Source: a bacterium
GTDB taxonomy: Bacteria > Zixibacteria > MSB-5A5 > GN15 > FEB-12
DNA length: 64,000 bases
Reading direction: 5' to 3'
Assembly (NCBI GenBank): GCA_043819515.1
Contig: JBDRES010000034.1
Coordinates: 3,945 to 67,944 of the forward strand
Part shown: positions 14,418-26,531 of the stretch, piece after piece
Layout: each line of letters starts with the position of its first letter
How positions within the stretch are numbered: the stretch's first letter is position 1
Notes under the pieces: model-generated
Databases searched by the model: none
Seen by the model: only the letters and a program-made list of their open reading frames with translations
What the model was told of the DNA's origin: nothing
Translations under genes and position numbers: made by a program

Positions 14418-14666
14418 GACCCCGGATCAGACCGGATTATGCCATCAGGTGCATGTTGTCGGTTTGTCTGTGCAACCGGCAGCCAGATGGCGAAGCCAGT
14501 TTGCACAAATCCGTCTGCAAGTTTCATAGCCAAAGCGACGGTCGTCTGATTTCACTCGGAATCGCGCGCAGCAAGGCAATTTGTGCTGGTTTGTGCCGCC
14601 AGATCAGCGTATAATAGAACTGGACAAACCGGCCCTGTGGATTATAAAGACGTTTTCGATTGCACT

Positions 14667-16367
14667 ATGCCCAGATACTGGCTGATCCTTACAGTGATAA
14701 TACTCTGGGGCGCCGGGGTTGCCTTTGGCGGCGCCACCCCTGATGATCTACAATACGTGTACGATGCCGGATATGGTGCCCGCCCGGCCGGTATGGGGAG
14801 GACGGCAGGTGCCCTGTCGGGTGACCTAGGCGCTGCTCTGGTCAATCCGGCCGGCTTGGTGACGCTACCGGTGTGGACCCTGGATGCGGACTTTGGTTAT
14901 CTCTCGGGTGGGGCGAGCCGAGCCTTGGCCGGCGTTGGCGGTCCGTGGCGCCAGGGTCATCTGGGATTAGCTATGTCTGTGTCCCAGCTCAGAGGGGTTA
15001 CGGCCTACCCGCGCAAGCGTTGGGTCTCCGATGTCATGCAGTACACTGGCCAAGCTGCGTATGCCCGCCGGATCACTCCGCGACTGGCCGGCGGTGGGGC
15101 GGTGAAGTTTGTCCTGCGCGAGGGGCCAGGTCAGAACAGCCAGGGGATCAATCTCGACCTGGGAGCGCGTTACGACCTTCCCAAGGGAATGGTTGCAGGC
15201 GCTTCCTGGAATGACCTGGCTCTTCAGAAAATCAAGCGGGCGGCTAGTGACGAATCGTTGCCTCATGTTTTTCGTTTCGGCGCCGCTATCGAAGAGGTCA
15301 AGATCGGCACCGAGTTCAGCGTCAATAGTGCCGTCGATCTGCTTTTTATTCAAGATGCCCAGGCTCAGCTACGCTTCGGGACGGAACTGGTGATCCCGTC
15401 TGATACCGAGTTTGACTTGAAACTGCGGGCCGGATACAACGGCCACGGGTTGTCGGTCGGAGGTGGTATTGCCGGTCGCTACGTGAGGATTGACTACGCC
15501 TTCAGTCGCCAGGCGGACCGGGACTTCCTTGATGATTACAGCCACGAGATATCAATCTCGGTTGTTCCCGACCAGATCTACGGCTTGCTTACCAGGGGTT
15601 CTCAATGCGCGGTGGAAGACTACCGAAGGGAGCGCTACCAGTATCATTTGGTCCGGGCCGAAGAGGCCCTGGCTGAATCGCAACTTGAGGTTGCTCGCGA
15701 TGAGTACGTTCAGGCTGACGCCTTCGCGACCAGTCGGGCGCAGGCCGATTCGGCAAAAACCGCCACGAGGATGGCTCAGGAGGCTATTGATCGTCAGCAG
15801 GCTATGGCCGATCGAACCTCGCTGCGCATGTACGACGACAGTGTCACATTTTTCCGCGAGCTCCTGGCTGACAGTGTGAGAGCGCTCAATGCCGCCTTCG
15901 AGCAGCGCTTGGCCGATGAGCGCAAGATGCTGTTGGGGCAGCAACGGTCCGATTTGGTCGCCCAGGCGCGCATACATCTTGACAACGGAGAATATTATAG
16001 CGCCCTGGGCAAGATATCCCTGGTGCTCGACAACGACCCATCCGATACCGCCGCGGCAGCACTGCGGGAGGAAGTGAAGTCCAAGCTCCAGAGGGCGCTG
16101 TTGTCCGATGTGCGACCCACCGACCCGGGCGCGCTTTTGAGAGAGCTGGACAGCATGTTTGTGCATATGATTGGAGTCGACCGCCTGGTCTCGGATTCCG
16201 CCGTGGCCGAGTGGTATCGTCAGGGAATTGGTTACTCGCGCCAGGAGGAGTATCAACAGGCCATCGATATATGGCAGCGAGTATATCGCGCCCGCCCGGA
16301 TCATCCCACGGTGCTGGACGATATTCGTGCTGCGCAACGGCGACTGGAAGCTAAGGAACAGGAATAG
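14667..16367 (+). CDS. PorV/PorQ-like outer-membrane beta-barrel fused to a C-terminal TPR/helical region
   Basis: Signal peptide; GYGARPAGMG...VNPAGL motif; amphipathic strands ending RIDYAFS; TPR-like helices (EYQQAIDIWQRV...PDHP). Confidence 0.7.
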   Translation: MPRYWLILTVIILWGAGVAFGGATPDDLQYVYDAGYGARPAGMGRTAGALSGDLGAALVNPAGLVTLPVWTLDADFGYLSGGASRALAGVGGPWRQGHLGLAMSVSQLRGVTAYPRKRWVSDVMQYTGQAAYARRITPRLAGGGAVKFVLREGPGQNSQGINLDLGARYDLPKGMVAGASWNDLALQKIKRAASDESLPHVFRFGAAIEEVKIGTEFSVNSAVDLLFIQDAQAQLRFGTELVIPSDTEFDLKLRAGYNGHGLSVGGGIAGRYVRIDYAFSRQADRDFLDDYSHEISISVVPDQIYGLLTRGSQCAVEDYRRERYQYHLVRAEEALAESQLEVARDEYVQADAFATSRAQADSAKTATRMAQEAIDRQQAMADRTSLRMYDDSVTFFRELLADSVRALNAAFEQRLADERKMLLGQQRSDLVAQARIHLDNGEYYSALGKISLVLDNDPSDTAAAALREEVKSKLQRALLSDVRPTDPGALLRELDSMFVHMIGVDRLVSDSAVAEWYRQGIGYSRQEEYQQAIDIWQRVYRARPDHPTVLDDIRAAQRRLEAKEQE

Positions 16368-16559: not shown

Positions 16560-18620
16560 GTGAGCGTTATGCTGCGACGACCGATCAAAGAAATCAGCGC
16601 CGAATTCTCCGCCGAGGAAAAATATCTCGATAGTATTCAGCGCACCGTTCGCGAGGCGTGCGTCGCTGCCGGTATCGGGCGCAAAGATGTCTCGGCCGTC
16701 CTATTGGCCACCGAAGAAGGCGCCACCAACATCATCAGACACGCCTATCTCTACGAAAAAGGCCTTCTGCGCCTGCGGATCGTGATTTACCCCAAGATGG
16801 TCGTGTTTTCTCTTATCGATTTCGGTCGTTCCTTCCAGCCTGATCAAGTCGGCAACGTTGACCTGGAACACCTTGTGGCCAGCGGCCGCAAAGGTGGTCT
16901 GGGATTTTACATGATCAGGAAGATCATGGACTCGGTCCAGTATATTTCGTCGGCTGATCGCAACGAACTTCGTATGATCAAGCGCATCGGGAAGAAGCGC
17001 TCCGGCGGCCCGATGCTGAATCGGATGTTGTCGCTGCGGGTCAAGTTTTCGTTTTGGACGTTCTTTATCGTCTTTTTTATCGTAGCCGGTGCCTTCTATT
17101 ACATGGACCGCCAAACGACACGCCAGCTATATGATCGCCTCGACCGAACGGTGTCGGCCCTGATGAAGACGATCGCCGATCAAACGCAGGGATATCTCTC
17201 GTACTCTCGCTCGGCGGTTGAGTTCGACGAGCTGGTCGTGAGCTACATGAGAGCCAATCCTGAATTCCGAACGTTGGTTCTGGTAGACGGCCAGGGATCG
17301 ATTCTGGCTCACTCCGAGGATGCGCGGAGGATGGGGATGAGCTACCAGGTCCCCGACCAGATAGACGGTTCGCTGGTAGGCGTGCCGCAGCATTATGCGG
17401 TGGCGTCGGAAAACCTGAACTATCTCATCGTGCCGATTGTCTCGGGTCGACGCCAGTTGGGCCAGGTTCATGTGGTCTATTCCTCAAAAACGATTTCGAC
17501 TCCCCTGGCTGATGCGCGGCGTCGGATAGTAGTCCTGACATCACTTCTGTTTGTTTTCGGCATCGTCGGCATTTACATGCTGTCCAATTATTTTGTTCGA
17601 CCGATTGCGAATATCACTCGCCGCGTGCGTCGCTTTGCCTCGGGCGATCTTGAGTCGGAACTACCGCTTGAAGGGGCCGAGGAGTTCTTTGAGATTTCGA
17701 AAGCGTTCAACGAAATCATGACCCGTTTGAGTCAGGACCGCAAGAACATTGCGGCGCGTGAGAAGATGGCCCGCGAAATCGAGGTGGCCTCGCAAATTCA
17801 ACGCACGCTCCTGCCGACCAAGCTGCCCGATCTTCCCGGATTGGAGCTTGATGCCTTCTATCGCGCCGCCTCAGTCGTGGGCGGTGATCTCTACGATGTT
17901 TTCAGGATCGGCCCCGATCGTTATTGTCTCACTGTCGCCGATGTCAGCGGTAAGGGCGTGCCGGCCTCGCTTCTGATGTCGATGTTGCGCACCGTGATCA
18001 GGATCAGTGCCCAGGAGGCTACGTCGGCCAGAGATGTGCTCTTGAAAGTTAATGACTTCCTGAGCCGGAACATGCCGTCCGGCATGTTTATTACCATCAT
18101 GCTGGTGGTTTACGAAACGAAGGTACGGCGGTTGAATCTGGTCTCGGCGGGGCACAATGCCTTGCTTTTGTATCGGGCGCAGACAGGCCGGACCGAGCAA
18201 ATCAACCCGGCCGGGATGCCTCTCGGTATGCCGGACACACTGGATAGAGGGTTTGCGGAGAGCCTGACGGAGACCACGGTACAGCTAAACGACTCGGATC
18301 ACTTCCTGATCTTCACCGACGGTTTGTCCGAAGCCGTTGATCGGGAGGGACGACAATTCGGGTTGGATCGCCTGCAAGGTCTTTTTGGCACTTCCGCCGC
18401 CGGTCACCGCAGCCAAGATATCTCGCGCCTGGCCCAGGTGCTGATTGCCGAATTGGACGATTTTGCCGGGTTTACCAAAGCCAACGACGACATCACCTTC
18501 TTGGTGGCGCGAGCCACCGATGCCCACGATGAATTGCCGCCTGACAAGCCGGAGGCCGCATCAGTACTCACTATTGAAGATACTGATCCCGGCCCACAGG
18601 CCGAATCCGGTGACTCCTGA
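16560..18620 (+). CDS. RsbW-type anti-sigma Ser kinase + TM/periplasmic sensor + HAMP + SpoIIE/PP2C phosphatase fusion
   Basis: HATPase motifs EGATNIIRHAY and GGLGFYMIRKIMD; two TM helices; HAMP; PP2C motifs GGDLYD, VADVSGKG, FTDGL and DDIT. Confidence 0.9.
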   Translation: MSVMLRRPIKEISAEFSAEEKYLDSIQRTVREACVAAGIGRKDVSAVLLATEEGATNIIRHAYLYEKGLLRLRIVIYPKMVVFSLIDFGRSFQPDQVGNVDLEHLVASGRKGGLGFYMIRKIMDSVQYISSADRNELRMIKRIGKKRSGGPMLNRMLSLRVKFSFWTFFIVFFIVAGAFYYMDRQTTRQLYDRLDRTVSALMKTIADQTQGYLSYSRSAVEFDELVVSYMRANPEFRTLVLVDGQGSILAHSEDARRMGMSYQVPDQIDGSLVGVPQHYAVASENLNYLIVPIVSGRRQLGQVHVVYSSKTISTPLADARRRIVVLTSLLFVFGIVGIYMLSNYFVRPIANITRRVRRFASGDLESELPLEGAEEFFEISKAFNEIMTRLSQDRKNIAAREKMAREIEVASQIQRTLLPTKLPDLPGLELDAFYRAASVVGGDLYDVFRIGPDRYCLTVADVSGKGVPASLLMSMLRTVIRISAQEATSARDVLLKVNDFLSRNMPSGMFITIMLVVYETKVRRLNLVSAGHNALLLYRAQTGRTEQINPAGMPLGMPDTLDRGFAESLTETTVQLNDSDHFLIFTDGLSEAVDREGRQFGLDRLQGLFGTSAAGHRSQDISRLAQVLIAELDDFAGFTKANDDITFLVARATDAHDELPPDKPEAASVLTIEDTDPGPQAESGDS

Positions 18621-18694
18621 TGTTTATGCTTGCCAGCTCTCGCCTTCAGAGACTATCTTAGACACCGTGCGGCGCAGATTTTGAAGCCATAATT

Positions 18695-19096
18695 ATGAGT
18701 ACCTCAAACAACATTTCGATTTCCCTCTCCGAAGGCTCTCAAGGGTCTGTCTCTGAAGTGCGCGTTGATGGTGTGATCGATACCATCACGGCGGGCCAGC
18801 TCGAGGAGGTGTTTGAGGCTCTCATCAGGCGCGGCCGTTACCGAATTGTCGTCGACTTGGCCGGAGTGGACTACATATCCTCCGCCGGGTGGGGCATCTT
18901 CATTTCCAATATTCGCGACGTTCGCAACAACGACGGTGACATCAAACTGGCCAACATGGCCTCAAATGTATACGAGATTTATGATCTGCTGGAGTTTGAT
19001 AACGTTCTGCGTACCTATCAGACCCTGGAAGCAGCTCGGGCCAGTTTTGTACCGGTCGACGATCAAAAAAAAAAGCCGACGGACCAGTCCGGCTGA
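18695..19096 (+). CDS. STAS domain anti-sigma factor antagonist (RsbV/SpoIIAA-like), 0-frame product
   Basis: VDGVID...IVVDLAGVDYISSAGWG containing the phosphorylatable Ser. Confidence 0.92.
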   Translation: MSTSNNISISLSEGSQGSVSEVRVDGVIDTITAGQLEEVFEALIRRGRYRIVVDLAGVDYISSAGWGIFISNIRDVRNNDGDIKLANMASNVYEIYDLLEFDNVLRTYQTLEAARASFVPVDDQKKKPTDQSG

Positions 19097-19365
19097 CGCT
19101 GGTAGATAAGTTTCCAAGCTCATCATCAACCGATATGGCGGCCGATACACCGGCGACGGTGGACCGCGGCGATTCCGATATTGAATCGCTGATCCTGAAG
19201 ATCGTAAAGGACGATCCCTTTGCCTCCATCGGTCAGATCTCGCAGCAGGTCGTCCGCCTGCCCGGCGGTCGCCGAGGCGGCTGGTGGCGGGTCTTTGGTG
19301 TCCTGCGTCGTCGTCACCTTCTCAGGCGTCGTTCTCGATTTGCTTTTGTACGCCAGAGGAAGTAA
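19072..19365 (+). CDS. Basic HTH-like domain in the -1 frame of the STAS gene (probable frameshift extension; alternatively a 76-aa ORF from 19135)
   Basis: Open from the A10 run: KADGPVRLTLVDKFP...IESLILKIVKDDPFASIGQISQQV...GWWRVFGVLRRRHLLRRRSRFAF. No SD before ATG 19135. Confidence 0.6.
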   Translation, partial: KADGPVRLTLVDKFPSSSSTDMAADTPATVDRGDSDIESLILKIVKDDPFASIGQISQQVVRLPGGRRGGWWRVFGVLRRRHLLRRRSRFAFVRQRK

Positions 19366-19432
19366 TCACTCGAAAGACTTGTTGACACTTATGCGGCTTG
19401 CTCTATATTGCGGTTAAGAGGAGTATTGACAT

Positions 19433-21076
19433 ATGGTTAGCCAGAGTGGCCTGATTATTCTGCTCGTGGCGCTGGTGGTCATCCTCATCACTCTGCTTGT
19501 CCACCGCATCAGAAGAGAACGCCGCCATAGCGCCGCCCTGGATGGATTGCGGCCGGAAGAGCTGGATACCTTACTCAGTTCGAATGCCGGTCAGGGATCG
19601 GTGGCTGCCGTTGCTCGCAGAGTCTCCGACATATTGATCGGACCGGGTCAATGTCAGATCATATTGTTTGTTAGAAAAAAACGCGGCAATCTCGTCTGTA
19701 ATTACACTCACGGTCTGACCGACGAAGTTCGCGCAGGACTGCGCTTGCCGCACAGTAAAGCTCTTCTGGATCACTTGCAGGAGTGCTTTCTACCCAGAGA
19801 TCTAACTTGTATTCGTCCGTTTTTGCCTGAACCGTTTTCATCTCGATTGAGCGGAGTTGGCGTTGATGTGTACTTTCCTGTTTTTTGGAGAGACAACCTT
19901 TACGGCATTTACTTCGTCAAAAGCAACCTTGAGACTTCGCATGCTTTCAAGCTGCTGGTAGCATCCTTGGCCCAGACATTGTCGGCAACTTATCACATCA
20001 AGTGGCAGGAGACCAGAAATGAGACTTTGGCCAAAGAGTTGGCGGAGTCCAATCGGAAGTCGGCCGAGGTCCGCCCTCAGGTGACAGCCCCGTCTTCGAT
20101 GGCGGCCCTGGTCAAACACCGCAATTCGGAAAGCCTGATCCCGCGCCTTGTCAACTCCGTCAAGGAAGACCTGGGGCTCCAGCGGGCGGCCTTGGTATAC
20201 GATGGTCCCGGACGACAGGGGATGATTAAAGTCACAGGAGAAGGGGGCGACAGGAATCTGAGCACACCAGCATCGAAGGCTTTCGAGCAGCTTCTGGGGC
20301 GGCTCGACGAGAATTCGACGCTCAGCCTCAAGGAGATATCGGTCGACATTCCACCCCTTTGCGAGTGGAGCCGGGAATTGCAGCGCAGTGGTATGCAGTA
20401 TGTGGCTCCCTTCACTCTTTCCGGGCGCCGTAGATGTGTCTTGGCCTTTGCCTGCCAAGGGGAGGTAGGCACTATCGGCAGCCGACTGAAGCTGTTACGA
20501 TCGCACGCCGTCGATCTGGTGGCCAACGCCGAAGAATACGAAGAGATCGAAGCCCTTTCGTACACCGACAATCTGACCCAGTTGGCCAACCGTCGCTATC
20601 TTACCAAGCGGTTGGGCGAAGAAATCGCCAGAGCCGGTCGCTATCAGCGCCAGTTGGTATTGATAATCTTCGATTTGGATCAGCTCAAGACAGTCAACGA
20701 TCAGTACGGCCATCATGCCGGCGACACCGTCTTGATGCAGTTGAGTCATGTCCTGCGCCGCTCTATTCGTTCGATTGATATTGTGGCTCGTTACGGTGGG
20801 GATGAGTTCTGTGTTGTAATGCCTGAGGCCGACGCCACCAGTTGCCGACATTTTATGTCTCGCCTACAAGCCAAGGTAGCTCGGACGCCGGTCTGCATCG
20901 ATGAGAGCGGCCAGTCGGTCAGCTTCACTATTTCGCTGGGCGGGGCGGTTTTTCCGGATCACGGAACCGACGCCGACAGTCTCCTGAGGGCTGCCGACGC
21001 GGCCCTGTTGCGGGCTAAGGGTCGCGGTCGCGATTGTGCGCTGATGTATGACGAGGCCGATATCGCCGTCGAATAG
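19433..21076 (+). CDS. Membrane-anchored diguanylate cyclase with GAF-like domains
   Basis: N-terminal TM; DNLTQLANRR, DLDQLKTVNDQYGH and ARYGGDEF motifs with an RSID I-site. Confidence 0.92.
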   Translation: MVSQSGLIILLVALVVILITLLVHRIRRERRHSAALDGLRPEELDTLLSSNAGQGSVAAVARRVSDILIGPGQCQIILFVRKKRGNLVCNYTHGLTDEVRAGLRLPHSKALLDHLQECFLPRDLTCIRPFLPEPFSSRLSGVGVDVYFPVFWRDNLYGIYFVKSNLETSHAFKLLVASLAQTLSATYHIKWQETRNETLAKELAESNRKSAEVRPQVTAPSSMAALVKHRNSESLIPRLVNSVKEDLGLQRAALVYDGPGRQGMIKVTGEGGDRNLSTPASKAFEQLLGRLDENSTLSLKEISVDIPPLCEWSRELQRSGMQYVAPFTLSGRRRCVLAFACQGEVGTIGSRLKLLRSHAVDLVANAEEYEEIEALSYTDNLTQLANRRYLTKRLGEEIARAGRYQRQLVLIIFDLDQLKTVNDQYGHHAGDTVLMQLSHVLRRSIRSIDIVARYGGDEFCVVMPEADATSCRHFMSRLQAKVARTPVCIDESGQSVSFTISLGGAVFPDHGTDADSLLRAADAALLRAKGRGRDCALMYDEADIAVE

Positions 21077-21217: not shown

Positions 21218-22186
21218 ATGCGAAGGATCGTGCCGGTATTATTGGTGCTATTAGCGCTCAGTATTCAAGGACAAGTACAATCGGGAGAATATGTCGTCGG
21301 GGCCGGGGACTTGCTGCAGCTTAGTTTCTGGCAGGATCCTCTCTTGAACAGCAGCGTCAAGGTTCGCCAGGACGGCTACATCACAGTGGACATAGTTGGC
21401 GAAATGATGGCGGCTGGAAAGACCACGGTGCAATTGCAAGATGATATTGTGCGCCAGATGTCGCGGCTTAACAAGCGGATATCGCAGGTCACCGTGAGGG
21501 TCACCGAGTATCACTTCCAATATGTATTTGTGACCGGTCAGGTCAACGCGCCCGGCAAGCTGACCTTTGAGCAGATCCCGGACCTGGTGACGGTACTCAA
21601 CGAAGCCGGTTGGATTACGGATCATGGCGATCTTTCGCGCGTGACCATCATCCGCGGCGGCGAGCTGGCCGGACAGGTGCAGGTCGTTGATGTCGCCTCA
21701 GCGATCGCCGCCGGCAACGCTAGCGGACTGCCCGGCGTTTTTCGTCAGGATGCTATCGAGGTCCCGCTCACACCGGCCGGAATACGCTCGGCGGATATAG
21801 GGGTTCAGGCGACCCGCAAGAATGTGATATATGTCACCGGAGCCGTGAATACGCCCGGAGCCATCCGGTTTGAAACCAATATCGACGTATATGAGGCCAT
21901 CGCACTGGCCGGCGGCCCGACCGACGCCGCCAAACTTGAGGAGGTCAAAGTCATTTCCAAGGATGGTGCCTACGCTCAGGCTTACCAGATTGACCTCAAA
22001 AAGTATTCGACTACCGGTACTCCGGCGCGGTATATACTGAGTAAGGAAGATCAGGTGGTGGTGCCGGTTCGACGAAACGGCTTTTGGGGCGGAACGGTCG
22101 GAACCGCTGCTACGGTCATTGGTGTTGTAACGTCAGCAGTGCTTCTGTATCAGAATCTGAAACCGCAGGATCAACAAGCGAACTAA
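21218..22186 (+). CDS. Polysaccharide export protein (Wza/OPX-like, SLBB domains)
   Basis: YVVGAGDLL..VRQDGYI poly_export motif; two V(T)G(Q/A)VN.PG SLBB repeats. Confidence 0.88.
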   Translation: MRRIVPVLLVLLALSIQGQVQSGEYVVGAGDLLQLSFWQDPLLNSSVKVRQDGYITVDIVGEMMAAGKTTVQLQDDIVRQMSRLNKRISQVTVRVTEYHFQYVFVTGQVNAPGKLTFEQIPDLVTVLNEAGWITDHGDLSRVTIIRGGELAGQVQVVDVASAIAAGNASGLPGVFRQDAIEVPLTPAGIRSADIGVQATRKNVIYVTGAVNTPGAIRFETNIDVYEAIALAGGPTDAAKLEEVKVISKDGAYAQAYQIDLKKYSTTGTPARYILSKEDQVVVPVRRNGFWGGTVGTAATVIGVVTSAVLLYQNLKPQDQQAN

Positions 22187-22193
22187 AGCAGCG

Positions 22194-23702
22194 ATGCCTT
22201 CTACAAATTCAGATAGCGAAAAGCGTATAGACGTCAAGTTGATTTTGGCCATAGCGTTGAAGCGCAAATGGCTTCTGGCGTTACCGTTGGTCTTTGTGAC
22301 GGCCATTGCCTATGGCTCCTCATATTTCCTGACGCCCATATACGAATCGTTCTCCATAATCTGGATAGACAAACCTCACAATGTGTCCAGTGAACTGATC
22401 AGCATTATTGGCCGTGAGGGCGGTCAGAGATTATCAAGCGATGATCGGCAGCGGGAACTGCAAGCGCTACAAAATGAGATTACGTCACAGACTTACCTGC
22501 AGGCACTGATCCAGGATCTGGGTTTGGACAACAATCCGGACTTGATCCGTCAGGCGGCTCAGATGCGCGAGGAGAATCCGGACCGGAGTCTGCAGGAGCT
22601 GAAGTTGCATCTCCTGATGGAACAACTCCGCAGGCGGATCGCGGTGGCTTATGTCGGCCAGGATCAGATCAAAATAACGGTCGAGTCCGGCGAGCCGACC
22701 CTCGCTCGCGACATGGTCACCCGTCTGACCGAGATTCTGGAACGAGAGAAGACCGCTTACGAACTGGAGAAAATCCTCGATAATCAGACTTTTGCCGATC
22801 TTCAGTTGCAACGGACCGAACTGGAATACCAGGCCATGCTGGACTCACTGACCGGGGCGCGGGCGCAGCTGTCCAAATTGCAGGTACCCCAGAGTATTGC
22901 CTCGCAGGAGAATCGACGGGAGATCCTGGCCGATATTGAAAATGCCACGCAGGAAAGCACCGGTCTTGAGCATGATCGCGATGCCATCATGAATGACCTG
23001 CGCCGTTTCGGCCTGGACAACTTGCGCTTGCATTATACCGACACGCTCGTGGAATTGCGTACCGAGATCGACGAACAGGTCGGGTCCTATGCGGCCATGA
23101 TGGAGCAGTACGCCTGGAGTTCGCAGAACGTCATCAACGTCAATATTCGCCTGAATGACAACGTGCGTCTGTTGGAGCGGGAAACGGAAAGGGCCGTCCA
23201 GAGCCAGTATTCGTCCTATCCTGAGAATCAGCGTCAACTCCTGCGGCGTTATTTTACGGTCAATGAAAACCTTGATGTTGTGAGTTCCAAAGTCAGTCAG
23301 TTGCGTTCGTCGCTGGATAAGATCGAGCGACGCCTGGACCGACTGCCCGCCCTCCAGGCGGAGATCGATGAATTGGATCGCCGCCTGACCGAGGCACGGC
23401 GCTACCGGGACGCCTTCCGTAGCGAGGAGTCGACCGTCGAGATACTGTCTGAGAGAGCCAAGGATAGAACCAAATACAAGATTATTGAACCGGCCCGAGT
23501 GCCCTTGGTGCCGGTCTGGCCCGATCACAACCGGATAATCATTATGGGTATGCTGTTGGGACTGGTGATCGGCGGTGGCGCAGTATTTCTGGCCGAAATG
23601 CTGGACAAGTCGTTCAAGGATGTGGGCGACATTGAAGAGGCTCTCCAACTGCCGGTTCTGGCCACAATACCAAGAATAGAGAAATTGCGCTTCAATCGGT
23701 GA
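22194..23702 (+). CDS. Polysaccharide chain-length determinant / co-polymerase (Wzc N-terminal, GumC-like)
   Basis: Two TMs flanking a coiled coil; IIEPARVPLVPVWP; C-terminal LQLPVLATIP. Confidence 0.88.
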   Translation: MPSTNSDSEKRIDVKLILAIALKRKWLLALPLVFVTAIAYGSSYFLTPIYESFSIIWIDKPHNVSSELISIIGREGGQRLSSDDRQRELQALQNEITSQTYLQALIQDLGLDNNPDLIRQAAQMREENPDRSLQELKLHLLMEQLRRRIAVAYVGQDQIKITVESGEPTLARDMVTRLTEILEREKTAYELEKILDNQTFADLQLQRTELEYQAMLDSLTGARAQLSKLQVPQSIASQENRREILADIENATQESTGLEHDRDAIMNDLRRFGLDNLRLHYTDTLVELRTEIDEQVGSYAAMMEQYAWSSQNVINVNIRLNDNVRLLERETERAVQSQYSSYPENQRQLLRRYFTVNENLDVVSSKVSQLRSSLDKIERRLDRLPALQAEIDELDRRLTEARRYRDAFRSEESTVEILSERAKDRTKYKIIEPARVPLVPVWPDHNRIIIMGMLLGLVIGGGAVFLAEMLDKSFKDVGDIEEALQLPVLATIPRIEKLRFNR

Positions 23703-24829
23703 GAGATATGGAAACCTATCGTTTGAAAAGCAGACTCGTCGGACGGGACAAGGAATACATCATCCAGACCTCCAACGATGCCGACCAGTCCGCCGTGTCG
23801 AGTGTTCTAATTGTGGATGGCGTACCGACTGAGACGGCGCGCTTTGACCATCCCGGCGATATCGGATCTGAAGAAGTCCTGCAGTTGGTACGCTCAAAAC
23901 ACGACCGTACCAAGCAAGAGGTCGAGAGCCTCCTGAACGCCTGCCGTGAGGCCCTTGATCGCCGGGAACCCGAGCATATGACTAATCTGGGGCTGGCCTG
24001 TTTTTACAAAGGATTCTATCTGGAAGCGCAGGAACTTATGCGCACGGCCATCGCTGTCGATGGAGCGGGCCATCGGGCGCTTCACTACCTTAGCCAGGTG
24101 GAGTCGGCCCTGGAACGGCCCGCCGCCGCCGTCCAGGCAGCTGAGCAAGCGGTGCAATTGCGGCCCCGATTCGCCGACTATAGGAACAACCTGGGGGTTG
24201 CTTTGGCCGGCGCCGGCAGATACCGCCACGCTATCGGCGAGTTCACCGAAGCTATCCAAATCAATCTCTATTATGCCGAGGCCTATTTTAATCTTGGACT
24301 GGCCCTGGTGCACAACGCCCTGACACGGGATGATCCGTCATTGTTTGAGGGAGTGCTGTCCCGGTCGGAGGAGCAGTTCAATCGGGCCTTGATGATCAAT
24401 TCCGATTACGATACGCCGCTGTTTCATCGTGGTATTCAGTCGCTCCGCGAGACTGACTTACCGGGGGCCTACGCCTGCTTCAGCCGCCTGCGTGAGGAAC
24501 GCTGGGAACGCCACCGTAGAGAATATGCGAGCTTCTATATGCAGTCGATTCTGTATCCCGACTGGTCCAACGAAGATGCGTTGGACGATCGGATCAGCTT
24601 TCTGCAAAAGGAAATCGAACGGAATCCAACCTACGTGGATCTGGTGGCACAGTTGGGTCACTGCCACCTGCACCGGGCCCGGCTGGCCTGGTCTTGCGGC
24701 CTGGAGCAATATCGCTCGGCTCTGCAGACCAACGCCTCGCTGAAGGAACTCCGAGACATTTTGGATCGCGGCGAAGAGTGTCTGGCCGGGTTGGATAAGG
24801 TCTTGTCAGAGATTCCGAAGAAAGGGTGA
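23699..24829 (+). CDS. Cytoplasmic TPR protein with a distinct N-terminal domain
   Basis: TPR motifs (PRFADYRNNLGVAL, YAEAYFNLGLAL); no signal peptide; translationally coupled on both sides. Confidence 0.8.
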   Translation: MRDMETYRLKSRLVGRDKEYIIQTSNDADQSAVSSVLIVDGVPTETARFDHPGDIGSEEVLQLVRSKHDRTKQEVESLLNACREALDRREPEHMTNLGLACFYKGFYLEAQELMRTAIAVDGAGHRALHYLSQVESALERPAAAVQAAEQAVQLRPRFADYRNNLGVALAGAGRYRHAIGEFTEAIQINLYYAEAYFNLGLALVHNALTRDDPSLFEGVLSRSEEQFNRALMINSDYDTPLFHRGIQSLRETDLPGAYACFSRLREERWERHRREYASFYMQSILYPDWSNEDALDDRISFLQKEIERNPTYVDLVAQLGHCHLHRARLAWSCGLEQYRSALQTNASLKELRDILDRGEECLAGLDKVLSEIPKKG

Positions 24830-25638
24830 GCCCAATGACGCGTTCCCGAGGGATATCTGTCATCGATTCTTTCGCTCTTGAGACTCCGTACGCCACCGAA
24901 TTCAGGCGGCTACTTCACAAGATAGAGCAAACCTCGCCCGGACATAATTCGCGCAGTATACTGGTCAGTTCGGCCATGCTGTCGGAAGGCAAATCCACGA
25001 TCTGCGCTTTTCTGGCGATCACGGCCGCCCTGCACCGCGGATTGAAAACGCTGGTCATGGATTGCGATCTTCGCCGCCCGTCTATTCACAAGCTCTTCGC
25101 CTGTAGCCGTGAGCGCGGTCTGGCTGAAGTTCTGAAGGACGGGTTTAGACTCGGTGACGCTATCAAGAAGACTTCGATCGACAAACTCGATCTGATTACC
25201 TGCGGTGCCCATCACAACGCGCCCAGCAAGCTTTTTGATGTCGAGGTGATCGGCGGTTTGGTGGAGCAGATGAAGTTTGCGTATGATCTGGTGCTGGTCG
25301 ATGCCGCTCCCATTCTACCGGTGTCGGATCCGATGCTGCTGGCGCCCAAGATCGACGACATTATCCTGGTGGTCAAGGCAGGTTCGACACAAAAGGACGT
25401 GGTCGCTCGGGCTGTTGAGATCCTCGGTCACAGCAGGAATCAGATCCTGGGGGTAGTTCTCAACAACATGAACAATGCCCTGCCGTTCCAGTATGACTAT
25501 CGCTACTATGGTTACGAATACAAAAACAGGCCGACTCAACGCGATCAGGTGCGCGTCCGATCGCCCAAGGCACCTACGTCGCAGCGCAGTCCCAATAAGC
25601 CGGGGCCCTCAGCCAAAGACTTAGCCAAACCTCATTGA
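24826..25638 (+). CDS. CpsD/CapB family BY tyrosine kinase
   Basis: SEGKST Walker A, DCDLRRP, DAAPILPVSD; C-terminal Tyr cluster YDYRYYGYEY. Confidence 0.92.
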   Translation: MSPMTRSRGISVIDSFALETPYATEFRRLLHKIEQTSPGHNSRSILVSSAMLSEGKSTICAFLAITAALHRGLKTLVMDCDLRRPSIHKLFACSRERGLAEVLKDGFRLGDAIKKTSIDKLDLITCGAHHNAPSKLFDVEVIGGLVEQMKFAYDLVLVDAAPILPVSDPMLLAPKIDDIILVVKAGSTQKDVVARAVEILGHSRNQILGVVLNNMNNALPFQYDYRYYGYEYKNRPTQRDQVRVRSPKAPTSQRSPNKPGPSAKDLAKPH

Positions 25639-26531
25639 TGAGGGATATAGCCGTGGCCCAGAGCGCCCGTCGTCATCTCAATCTATTGACCGTCGATTTA
25701 GAAGAGTGGTTCGTCGTTCAGGCTCTCCGTGGCCACTATACGAGCGACGATTGGACTCGTCTGCCGTCGACGATCGGGAAAAACACGCAACGCCTTCTGG
25801 GTTTGTTCCGGCATTATGATGTGCAAGCCACCTGGTTCGTATTGGGCTGGTGCGCCGACAACTATCCGGATCTGATCAGACAGATCGCCAACGATGGTCA
25901 CGAGATAGCTTGCCACAGCTACCGCCACGATCGAGTTGATCAGTTGACCCCCGATGAATTCCGACGCGACACCTCCAGGGCGATAGAGGCCATTACCAAG
26001 GCCACCGGCGTGAGACCAGTCGGCTATCGGGCCCCTAGTTGGTCCATTAACGGCGACATCCCGTGGGCCTTCGAGATCCTGGCCGAGCTCGGATTTGAGT
26101 ATGACAGCTCGATTTTTCCGATCAAGCATGACATCTACGGTATGCCTGAGGGGCCGCGACAAATGTTTAGGATGAAATGCAGCCAGGGCCGATTTTTGTA
26201 TGAAATACCGGCCTCGACCTGGCGCTTGTTCGGCAAGAACATGCCCATTGCCGGCGGCGGTTACCTGCGCCACACGCCGTACTGGTACAATCGCTGGATG
26301 GTGCGGCGTCTCAATCGCCGGGGTCAACCGGCCAATGTCTATCTTCACCCCTGGGAACTCGATCCGGATCCTCCCCAAATAGGCAAGCTGTCAATGAGTC
26401 AGAGGTTACGAAGCTACGGCTCGACGAACATCTTCGCCTTGAAACTGCAGAGACTCCTGTCCGATTTTAGTTTCACCACCATTGCCCAGTATCTGAAGCG
26501 TCAGCGTCAGCAGCCCATCGGTTTTCGCTAG
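25635..26531 (+). CDS. Polysaccharide deacetylase (PEP-CTERM/XrtA-locus type, DUF3473)
   Basis: TVDLEEWF, GHEIACHSYRH, GYRAPSWS, GGGYLR and YLHPWELDP motifs. Confidence 0.9.
   Translation: MMRDIAVAQSARRHLNLLTVDLEEWFVVQALRGHYTSDDWTRLPSTIGKNTQRLLGLFRHYDVQATWFVLGWCADNYPDLIRQIANDGHEIACHSYRHDRVDQLTPDEFRRDTSRAIEAITKATGVRPVGYRAPSWSINGDIPWAFEILAELGFEYDSSIFPIKHDIYGMPEGPRQMFRMKCSQGRFLYEIPASTWRLFGKNMPIAGGGYLRHTPYWYNRWMVRRLNRRGQPANVYLHPWELDPDPPQIGKLSMSQRLRSYGSTNIFALKLQRLLSDFSFTTIAQYLKRQRQQPIGFR

Follow-up and report, generated by a model that had tools for sequence, protein, structure and literature searches.

How could one gene encode two proteins when its second domain lies in a different reading frame from its first? 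This question is raised by a STAS gene in a 64,000-nucleotide stretch of a Zixibacteria genome (GenBank assembly GCA_043819515.1, contig JBDRES010000034.1, positions 3,945 to 67,944 of the forward strand; the whole stretch is hereafter called the window). The gene lies between a membrane sensor that carries both kinase and phosphatase domains and a diguanylate cyclase, and a first-pass annotation of this partner-switching module had described its product as a STAS protein with a helix-turn-helix (HTH) domain. We found that the STAS domain and an HTH-like region are indeed both there, but that the HTH sits in the -1 frame, behind a run of ten adenines (A10). The origin of the long isoform, which that annotation left unaddressed, is the most unusual feature of the module, and our strongest result, drawn from sequence comparison, is the support for a programmed recoding of this gene. 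We consider it very likely that this single gene yields two products.

The A10 run and the out-of-frame HTH

The relevant features of the STAS gene in the window are the following:

18695..19096, + strand: STAS gene with a short, unslipped product of 133 aa (PF01740, E 6.7e-16; stop codon TGA at 19094-19096)
19065..19074, + strand: A10 run followed by G, the predicted slippage site
19066..19365, + strand: HTH extension in the -1 frame, 99 codons, made up of a linker and a basic four-helix HTH-like domain (at about 19165-19362, with an Arg-rich end and a weak likeness to Tc3/IS630-type transposase HTH domains)

One extra A is predicted to give a STAS-HTH protein of 223 aa, and runs of 9 or 12 A products of 137-138 aa. 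Only three A10/T10 runs occur in the 3.33 Mb genome, so the run in the STAS gene is not expected by chance. A STAS orthologue was found in 138 of the 161 genomes of the phylum (E<=1e-28, a single match each). We compared 126 loci, one per genome, consisting of 26 from a first set and 100 of 118 new STAS matches; the 18 that were not fetched comprise one f1 locus at a contig edge and 17 from other families. Four sensor loci without a STAS gene were excluded, and the STAS loci of those genomes were fetched separately. Here f1 and f4 denote the window's family and its sister family, and the other loci come from 13 further families; the compared genomes are related, so the samples are not independent. 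The named relatives are mostly labelled Zixibacteria, with several records labelled Ignavibacteria or plain 'bacterium'.

Every f1/f4 locus that has the HTH (71 out of 71) carries a run of at least nine A on the sense strand (60 A10, 10 A9 and 1 A11), kept among homologues as in slippage of the Thermus thermophilus dnaX type, and the run is followed by G in 67 of them. In 26 of these loci the HTH shares the frame of the STAS domain; in 43 it is shifted to -1 and in 2 to +1. No run of at least nine A was found in the 53 loci of the 13 other families, where 52 genes are plain in-frame STAS-HTH genes. Genome G152 (locus L261) has a STAS-HTH gene that is interrupted by a -1 shift in the absence of any A run, and the rest of its examined family is in frame; this break is probably an assembly error or decay. 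An additional set of 80 loci, skewed to in-frame genes and overlapping the 126, was kept out of these counts; 44 of its loci carry A9-11, and the 36 without it are all in frame. In a phylogeny of 74 loci based on the sensor and STAS sequences (FastTree, with changes taken as Fitch counts and no test of support), we counted 11 changes of frame state against 2 changes of run presence. Since the frame changes this often while the run stays, the gene tolerates any default frame provided that the run is present, which is what would be expected if both products are always made.

The flanking sequence points the same way. In 66 out of 71 loci, both frames other than that of the HTH meet a stop within 16 codons, versus 29.1 loci expected from resampling synonymous codons with the protein of the HTH frame kept constant. 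Control windows deeper in the tail showed no such excess (observed versus expected: 21 vs 18.2, 20 vs 26.2 and 8 vs 12.1). The similarity to in-frame orthologues reaches the A tract itself, and the pooled ratio of nonsynonymous to synonymous substitution (dN/dS) of the HTH is 0.098 in nine out-of-frame pairs versus 0.070 in eight in-frame pairs, with dS near saturation in several of them. By these measures, the out-of-frame HTH is coding and under purifying selection. Its own start codon with a Shine-Dalgarno (SD)-like motif is present in just 1 of the 45 out-of-frame loci. One public run contains a strain variant in which the short-frame stop persists as TAA instead of TGA; of the 20 differences listed for its tail, 15 (hand count) are at HTH-frame third positions. 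Contigs from three studies cross the run without a gap, reaching just 7-20 bases past it, and none spans it with 31 bases on each side; one of these studies may be the source sample, so this support is weak. A metagenome pattern scan for independent assemblies gave 42 matches, all of which we take to be chance because none has an A-rich gap.

The genome's other two A10 runs (contigs of the window's genome, G000) are:

G000:C12, run at 97505, minus strand (the sense strand of the gene): A10 in dnaX, about 400 codons in
G000:C24:57713: A10 in coaBC, at the domain junction, with close stops in both other frames

In dnaX, the other frames stop after 4 and 9 codons, a signature of the T. thermophilus tau/gamma type. 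The third gene we take to be coaBC. Among the genomes scored, 11 of 13 in f1, 2 of 2 in f2 and 0 of 4 in f4 have the dnaX run, and an A9-10 run at the CoaC/CoaB junction is present in 8 of 12 in f1 (4 out of frame), 5 of 5 in f4 and 0 of 7 others. The anchor motif used for scoring was missing in 8 dnaX and 5 coaBC loci, and the split dnaX of G135 was left out.

Probable slippage and rival sources of the two products

In T. thermophilus dnaX, slippage takes place on nine A's, and its hallmark is a nearby stop in each of the other two frames (PMC5009743, PMC1088944). The STAS genes resemble this gene and Shigella mxiE in having a run of at least nine A or T and close stops, and probably in giving short and long products from one gene (PMC1088944, PMC5009743). 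The long form is the default in T. thermophilus dnaX and arises by slippage in mxiE, and both arrangements are seen among the STAS orthologues (PMC1088944, PMC5009743). Unlike in these two genes, the device here lies in a Ser-phosphorylation target, and its default frame has flipped about 11 times within two families. We regard RNA polymerase, rather than the ribosome or the replisome, as the probable site of slippage. The literature searched yielded no paper on this module, on a STAS gene that undergoes slippage, or on slippage in Zixibacteria; most subscription journals lay outside the search, as did genome-wide frameshift surveys with their supplements, which might contain a case of this kind.

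Programmed -1 frameshifting by the ribosome, of the Escherichia coli dnaX type and on A_AAA_AAG or A_AAA_AAA, might instead produce the two isoforms, and the window itself leaves room for it: its run reads CAA AAA AAA AAG, which puts A_AAA_AAG in frame, and a -1 shift of the ribosome would give the same long product. Frameshifting would also fit the G after the run (67/71) and the preponderance of -1 among out-of-frame loci (43 vs 2). However, A_AAA_AAG is in frame at just 19 of 71 loci, the window included, upstream SD-like motifs are not enriched (12/71 vs 11% in control windows), and downstream folding is close to expectation (mean z -0.12, with 1 of 71 below -2 and the window at 0.04). In addition, run length stays within 9-11 A whichever of the three codon phases applies, a +1 shift would be needed in two loci, and the enrichment of stops covers both other frames, all of which make frameshifting an unlikely source of the isoforms. 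A different possibility is that the run serves phase variation, with replication slippage switching the HTH on in some subpopulations and off in others. Regulators of surface polysaccharides are typical targets of such phase variation. Moreover, the frame state does vary between genomes, and poly-A runs are hypermutable (PMC1088944). Yet flanking bases rather than run length set the frame, and A10 occurs with each of the three frame states; run length and frame agree between close relatives; the out-of-frame states are uneven (43 vs 2); and no indel variant was found in the contigs compared, though contigs drop rare variants. As the same signature is present in dnaX and coaBC, where on/off switching is implausible, we consider phase variation quite improbable.

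Still more improbable is a break caused by misassembly or by decay into a pseudogene, or an HTH that forms a small gene of its own, and we regard this view as largely refuted already. Homopolymers are error-prone in sequencing, gene callers give many stand-alone HTH proteins of 55-115 aa, and G152 is broken without any run. Against this stand the 45 genomes that are out of frame at the same run, the similarity to in-frame orthologues up to the run with a dN/dS of about 0.1, and the SD-like start in just 1 of 45 loci. The contigs of three studies, gapless through the run if only by 7-20 bases beyond it, and the strain variant, with its TGA-to-TAA change and its 15 of 20 tail differences at HTH-frame third positions, count against it as well.

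Sensor, HTH and output

The remaining features of the module, with the domains of the sensor given in its own residue numbers, are:

16560..18620, + strand: membrane sensor kinase/phosphatase, open reading frame of 686 aa with domain matches
sensor aa 16-141: HATPase_c_2 (RsbW-type Ser kinase), E 1.7e-21
sensor aa 186-319: sCache_3_2 (Cache-like, periplasmic), E 1.3e-5, below cut-off
sensor aa 341-391: HAMP
sensor aa 452-652: SpoIIE/PP2C phosphatase, E 9.9e-43
19382..19409, + strand: sigma-70-type promoter-like site TTGACA-16-TATATT ahead of the cyclase, 11/12 matches
19433..21076, + strand: membrane-anchored diguanylate cyclase, 547 aa, with a transmembrane segment at aa 5-23, an uncharacterised middle, a GGDEF domain (E 2.3e-46) and an RxxD I-site
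21218..26531, + strand: polysaccharide genes (Wza-like export, chain-length determinant, TPR, tyrosine autokinase, XrtA-system polysaccharide deacetylase)
14583..16367, + strand: PorV-like (below cut-off)/TPR protein, which most related loci also have upstream of the sensor

A database copy of the sensor has 683 aa, starting three codons further in. One hydrophobic segment lies on either side of the Cache domain (aa 157-175, marginal at 1.81, and aa 323-341), so the kinase and the PP2C domain are both predicted to be cytoplasmic. The domain matches and hydrophobic segments thus agree with the initial description of one 686-aa chain with an N-terminal kinase, a periplasmic sensor, HAMP and a C-terminal PP2C domain. 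Its core catalytic residues are retained in 73-74 of 74 orthologues, including the kinase motifs E..N..RH (N-box), D.G and GGLG and the PP2C motifs GD..D, DV.GKG, DG and DD. In the STAS protein, the YISSAG serines S62 and S63 are unchanged in all 34 aligned orthologues, and Ser63 (18881-18883) is the presumed phospho-acceptor by alignment to SpoIIAA/RsbV; the STAS structure model resembles SpoIIAA/RsbV structures (E about 1e-6). A GHKL Ser kinase, a STAS protein with a conserved Ser and a PP2C phosphatase are all present at the locus, as in the Rsb/SpoII sigma partner switch (RsbW-RsbV-RsbU), and we think it highly likely that the sensor acts on the neighbouring STAS protein. The sensor offers a compact model of how a single transmembrane signal could toggle opposed kinase and phosphatase domains. 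Two further RsbW/STAS pairs are encoded in the genome (L256:2418-3266 and L257:1463-3552), one of them with an RsbU-like phosphatase and a HEAT-repeat-like protein.

For the tail of the long isoform, 15 of 25 aligned sequences match HTH_Tnp_Tc3_2 in Pfam, all below cut-off (best E 0.0017), and a model based on 50 sequences shows four helices without a wing (predicted confidence, pLDDT, 85). Together with the purifying selection, these results uphold the extension as a real, conserved helical HTH-like domain. A Foldseek search with the tail gave no match at E<=0.001, the best E in a PDB sequence search was 0.32, and a word-based search of longer proteins for the tail found nothing; the model of the full STAS-HTH protein is of low confidence (pLDDT 60), with structure matches via the STAS part alone. 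A profile search with the tail gave 102 proteins at E<=0.001. Scanning of 11 weak or long profile matches revealed three STAS proteins, the others having transposase-type or other HTH repeats; four of the 11 are family-2 glycosyltransferases with repeated N-terminal transposase-type HTH pairs (P0087, P0096, P0097, P0099). On balance, the HTH would fairly likely bind DNA.

Following the STAS gene, the window encodes the intact GGDEF cyclase with an I-site that had been noticed at the outset, as the domain match and both motifs confirm; GGDEF and RxxD are both present in all 39 cyclases extracted. Synteny holds in f1/f4, with the sensor gene ahead of STAS in 66 of 69 loci, the cyclase gene downstream in 43 of 44 and wza likewise in 41 of 43; it is much looser elsewhere. 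A complex prediction of the cyclase (aa 30-547) with STAS (aa 1-125) scored 0.00, and as its controls were not run we used it neither way. We put the adjacent cyclase and exopolysaccharide (EPS) genes at even odds of being the output. In L072 and L091, which have the f3 arrangement described below judging by context, a small outer-membrane-like gene and an NtrC-like regulator come just before STAS-HTH, and genes resembling that context (by eye) lie about 25 kb downstream in the window, at 45529-47649.

The first-pass annotation had also described the module as lacking a sigma factor. This stands for the locus, as none of the 18 sigma-70 region-2 matches in the genome lies on the window's contig, and for the SigB/F types: a distant partner of this kind was looked for, and SigB/F/G-type sigma factors (TIGR02980) were above cut-off in 0 of 31 genomes (metagenome-assembled), with one control genome above cut-off. 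It does not extend to FliA/WhiG sigma-28, which is encoded elsewhere and is above cut-off in all 31 genomes; in the window's genome, it belongs to a flagellar gene cluster on a different contig. A second group-1-like sigma match, found in 29 of 30 relatives, is missing from the window's genome (G000), probably because of an assembly gap.

Two other views of what the module acts through have to be weighed. The STAS protein or the kinase might control the flagellar sigma-28 (FliA/WhiG), much as HsbA acts via FlgM, with the cyclase and EPS genes as a sessile arm. The 31/31 occurrence of FliA/WhiG and the direct precedent of HsbR/HsbA/FlgM/HsbD (PMC5085249) favour this route, but the sigma-28 gene sits in a flagellar cluster on a separate contig, and the conserved HTH and two isoforms would be left unexplained, so that we find it doubtful. 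FlgM (PF04316) was not found in the window's genome, which is not evidence of absence because the genome is 95.5% complete and FlgM is divergent. The other view assigns the HTH a different role, that of a non-specific nucleoid tether positioning the sensor, the cyclase and the export machinery, with the short form as a free signalling pool. In the other families, the sensor ends in two transposase-type HTH domains at 21 of 50 loci, and at 20 of 50 a ParA-family ATPase is encoded between sensor and STAS-HTH, which would suit a tether. The second HTH of these sensors is weakly like the STAS tail (E 5e-5 at best, in 5 proteins), the tail is strongly basic (17 K/R vs 6 D/E), and no operator is evident by eye ahead of the cyclase. 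Yet f1/f4 lack both the ParA-family ATPase and the sensor HTH pair (0/69 for each), and the STAS HTH is still under purifying selection there, leaving the tether an unlikely role. The HTH-pair sensors, of about 950-975 aa, occur in six or seven other families and are followed by the ParA-family ATPase and a run-free STAS-HTH gene (L058:2394-6010, L065 and L084, among others).

Proposed mechanism and known systems

We propose that the kinase and phosphatase of the sensor set the phosphorylation of Ser63 on the neighbouring STAS protein, and that slippage of RNA polymerase at the A10 run would yield a mix of two kinds of protein, short STAS of 133-138 aa and STAS-HTH of 223 aa. DNA binding in the manner of CapS would fall to the long form; the HTH-less form would be a competitor for the kinase and phosphatase or, like SiaC and HsbA, act on the cyclase. 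In this way, the module would tune cyclic di-GMP (c-di-GMP) synthesis and polysaccharide production. We give this reading as a whole a probability of roughly 0.55. Because the in-frame, run-free STAS-HTH gene is the form found in other families, the run most likely evolved to add an HTH-less STAS protein.

Several observations pull the other way. The relatedness of the compared genomes and the near saturation of dS, both mentioned above, lessen the weight of the comparative counts. Two f1 loci without the HTH also lack the run (L012/G010 and L141/G147); they encode a STAS protein of 124 aa and retain the cyclase, so the HTH is dispensable in these two genomes. The genome has five more STAS matches and two more strong RsbW-like matches, which makes cross-talk possible. 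The window's own tail has no Pfam match, and the HTH assignment is correspondingly weak; its best structural matches (Z 6.5) are tied among winged HTH, nucleic-acid-binding and other helical domains and do not discriminate between them. Outside f1/f4, the sensor adjoins STAS in 27 of 50 loci, the cyclase in 34 of 51 and wza in 25 of 48, and in family f3 the sensor is directly followed by the cyclase (3 loci), with STAS-HTH elsewhere in the genome (10 loci). Furthermore, the region 19366-19432, which the first-pass annotation had offered as a target of the long isoform, turned out to hold a housekeeping-type promoter-like site. Its spacer varies, and 55 of 71 relatives match a relaxed version of the pattern. 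We saw no conserved operator ahead of the cyclase, judged by eye and without palindrome statistics.

More tentatively, the module could be a Ser-phosphorylation analogue of a two-component system in which the sensor both adds and removes the mark, STAS-HTH stands in for the response regulator as a transcription factor, and the slippage ratio divides the signal between a transcriptional and a c-di-GMP arm, with A10 slippage at domain junctions as a lineage-wide device (STAS, dnaX and coaBC). Functional transcriptional slippage is documented in few cellular genes. If our reading is true, it adds a signalling gene in which slippage decides whether a phosphorylation target carries a DNA-binding domain, and it comes with a natural history: run-free in-frame forms elsewhere, a run gained once, and a default frame flipped about 11 times. 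It also suggests that many Zixibacteria STAS and coaBC genes annotated as short, split or frameshifted are intact, and it provides a testable handle on the control of surface polysaccharide in an uncultured phylum.

The canonical Rsb/SpoII partner-switch scheme is set out in PMC8256260. A single-chain kinase/phosphatase acting on a STAS protein without a sigma factor, next to a polysaccharide locus, has precedents in SypE-SypA and HsbR-HsbA (PMC10120452, PMC5085249). As in the window, SypE of Vibrio fischeri combines an N-terminal Ser kinase and a C-terminal PP2C domain in one chain, with STAS output and a polysaccharide locus (PMC10120452). In contrast, SypE is soluble and switched by a central receiver (REC) domain (PMC10120452), whereas the module here has a transmembrane-Cache-transmembrane-HAMP arrangement, an optional STAS HTH and an adjacent cyclase. 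The SiaABCD system of Pseudomonas aeruginosa likewise unites a PP2C phosphatase, a kinase, a STAS-like protein and a diguanylate cyclase in one module (PMC7647112, PMC8457831), and SiaC binds and activates SiaD (PMC8457831, PMC7647112). There, the phosphatase SiaA and the kinase SiaB are separate proteins and the target is Thr68, with neither an HTH nor recoding mentioned in the accessible portions of these papers (PMC7647112, PMC8457831); here the two enzymes are fused, and the window's proteins are far under the Sia family cut-offs (80 vs 700 bits for NF038263, SiaA; 157 vs 290 bits for NF038266, SiaD).

HsbR/HsbA/HsbD of P. aeruginosa shares the bifunctional kinase/phosphatase and the STAS switch, and shows an interaction between a STAS protein and a cyclase (PMC5085249). 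HsbR, however, is a response regulator fed by HptB, with one output via FlgM (PMC5085249), whereas the window encodes a membrane sensor and a STAS protein with an optional HTH. For the long isoform, the precedent is CapK-CapS, in which a STAS-HTH protein, phosphorylated by an anti-sigma-type kinase, works on DNA directly and without a sigma factor (PMC13373217), CapS being a STAS-winged-HTH repressor (PMC13373217). This precedent lends support to the earlier idea of a Ser-phosphorylation two-component analogue with STAS-HTH output (PMC13373217), although the kinase-plus-phosphatase logic of that idea was already known. CapK differs in being a soluble HTH-STAS-GHKL protein whose activator is single-stranded DNA and which lies beside immune operons (PMC13373217), whereas here a membrane kinase-phosphatase has cyclase and EPS neighbours. 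CapS has a winged HTH, and the accessible part of its description mentions no cognate phosphatase, cyclase or second isoform (PMC13373217); the tail modelled here has four helices and no wing, with winged HTH domains among its tied best structural matches. In summary, the module works like the SypE, Sia, Hsb and Cap systems, and by the defining features tested it is a member of none of them.

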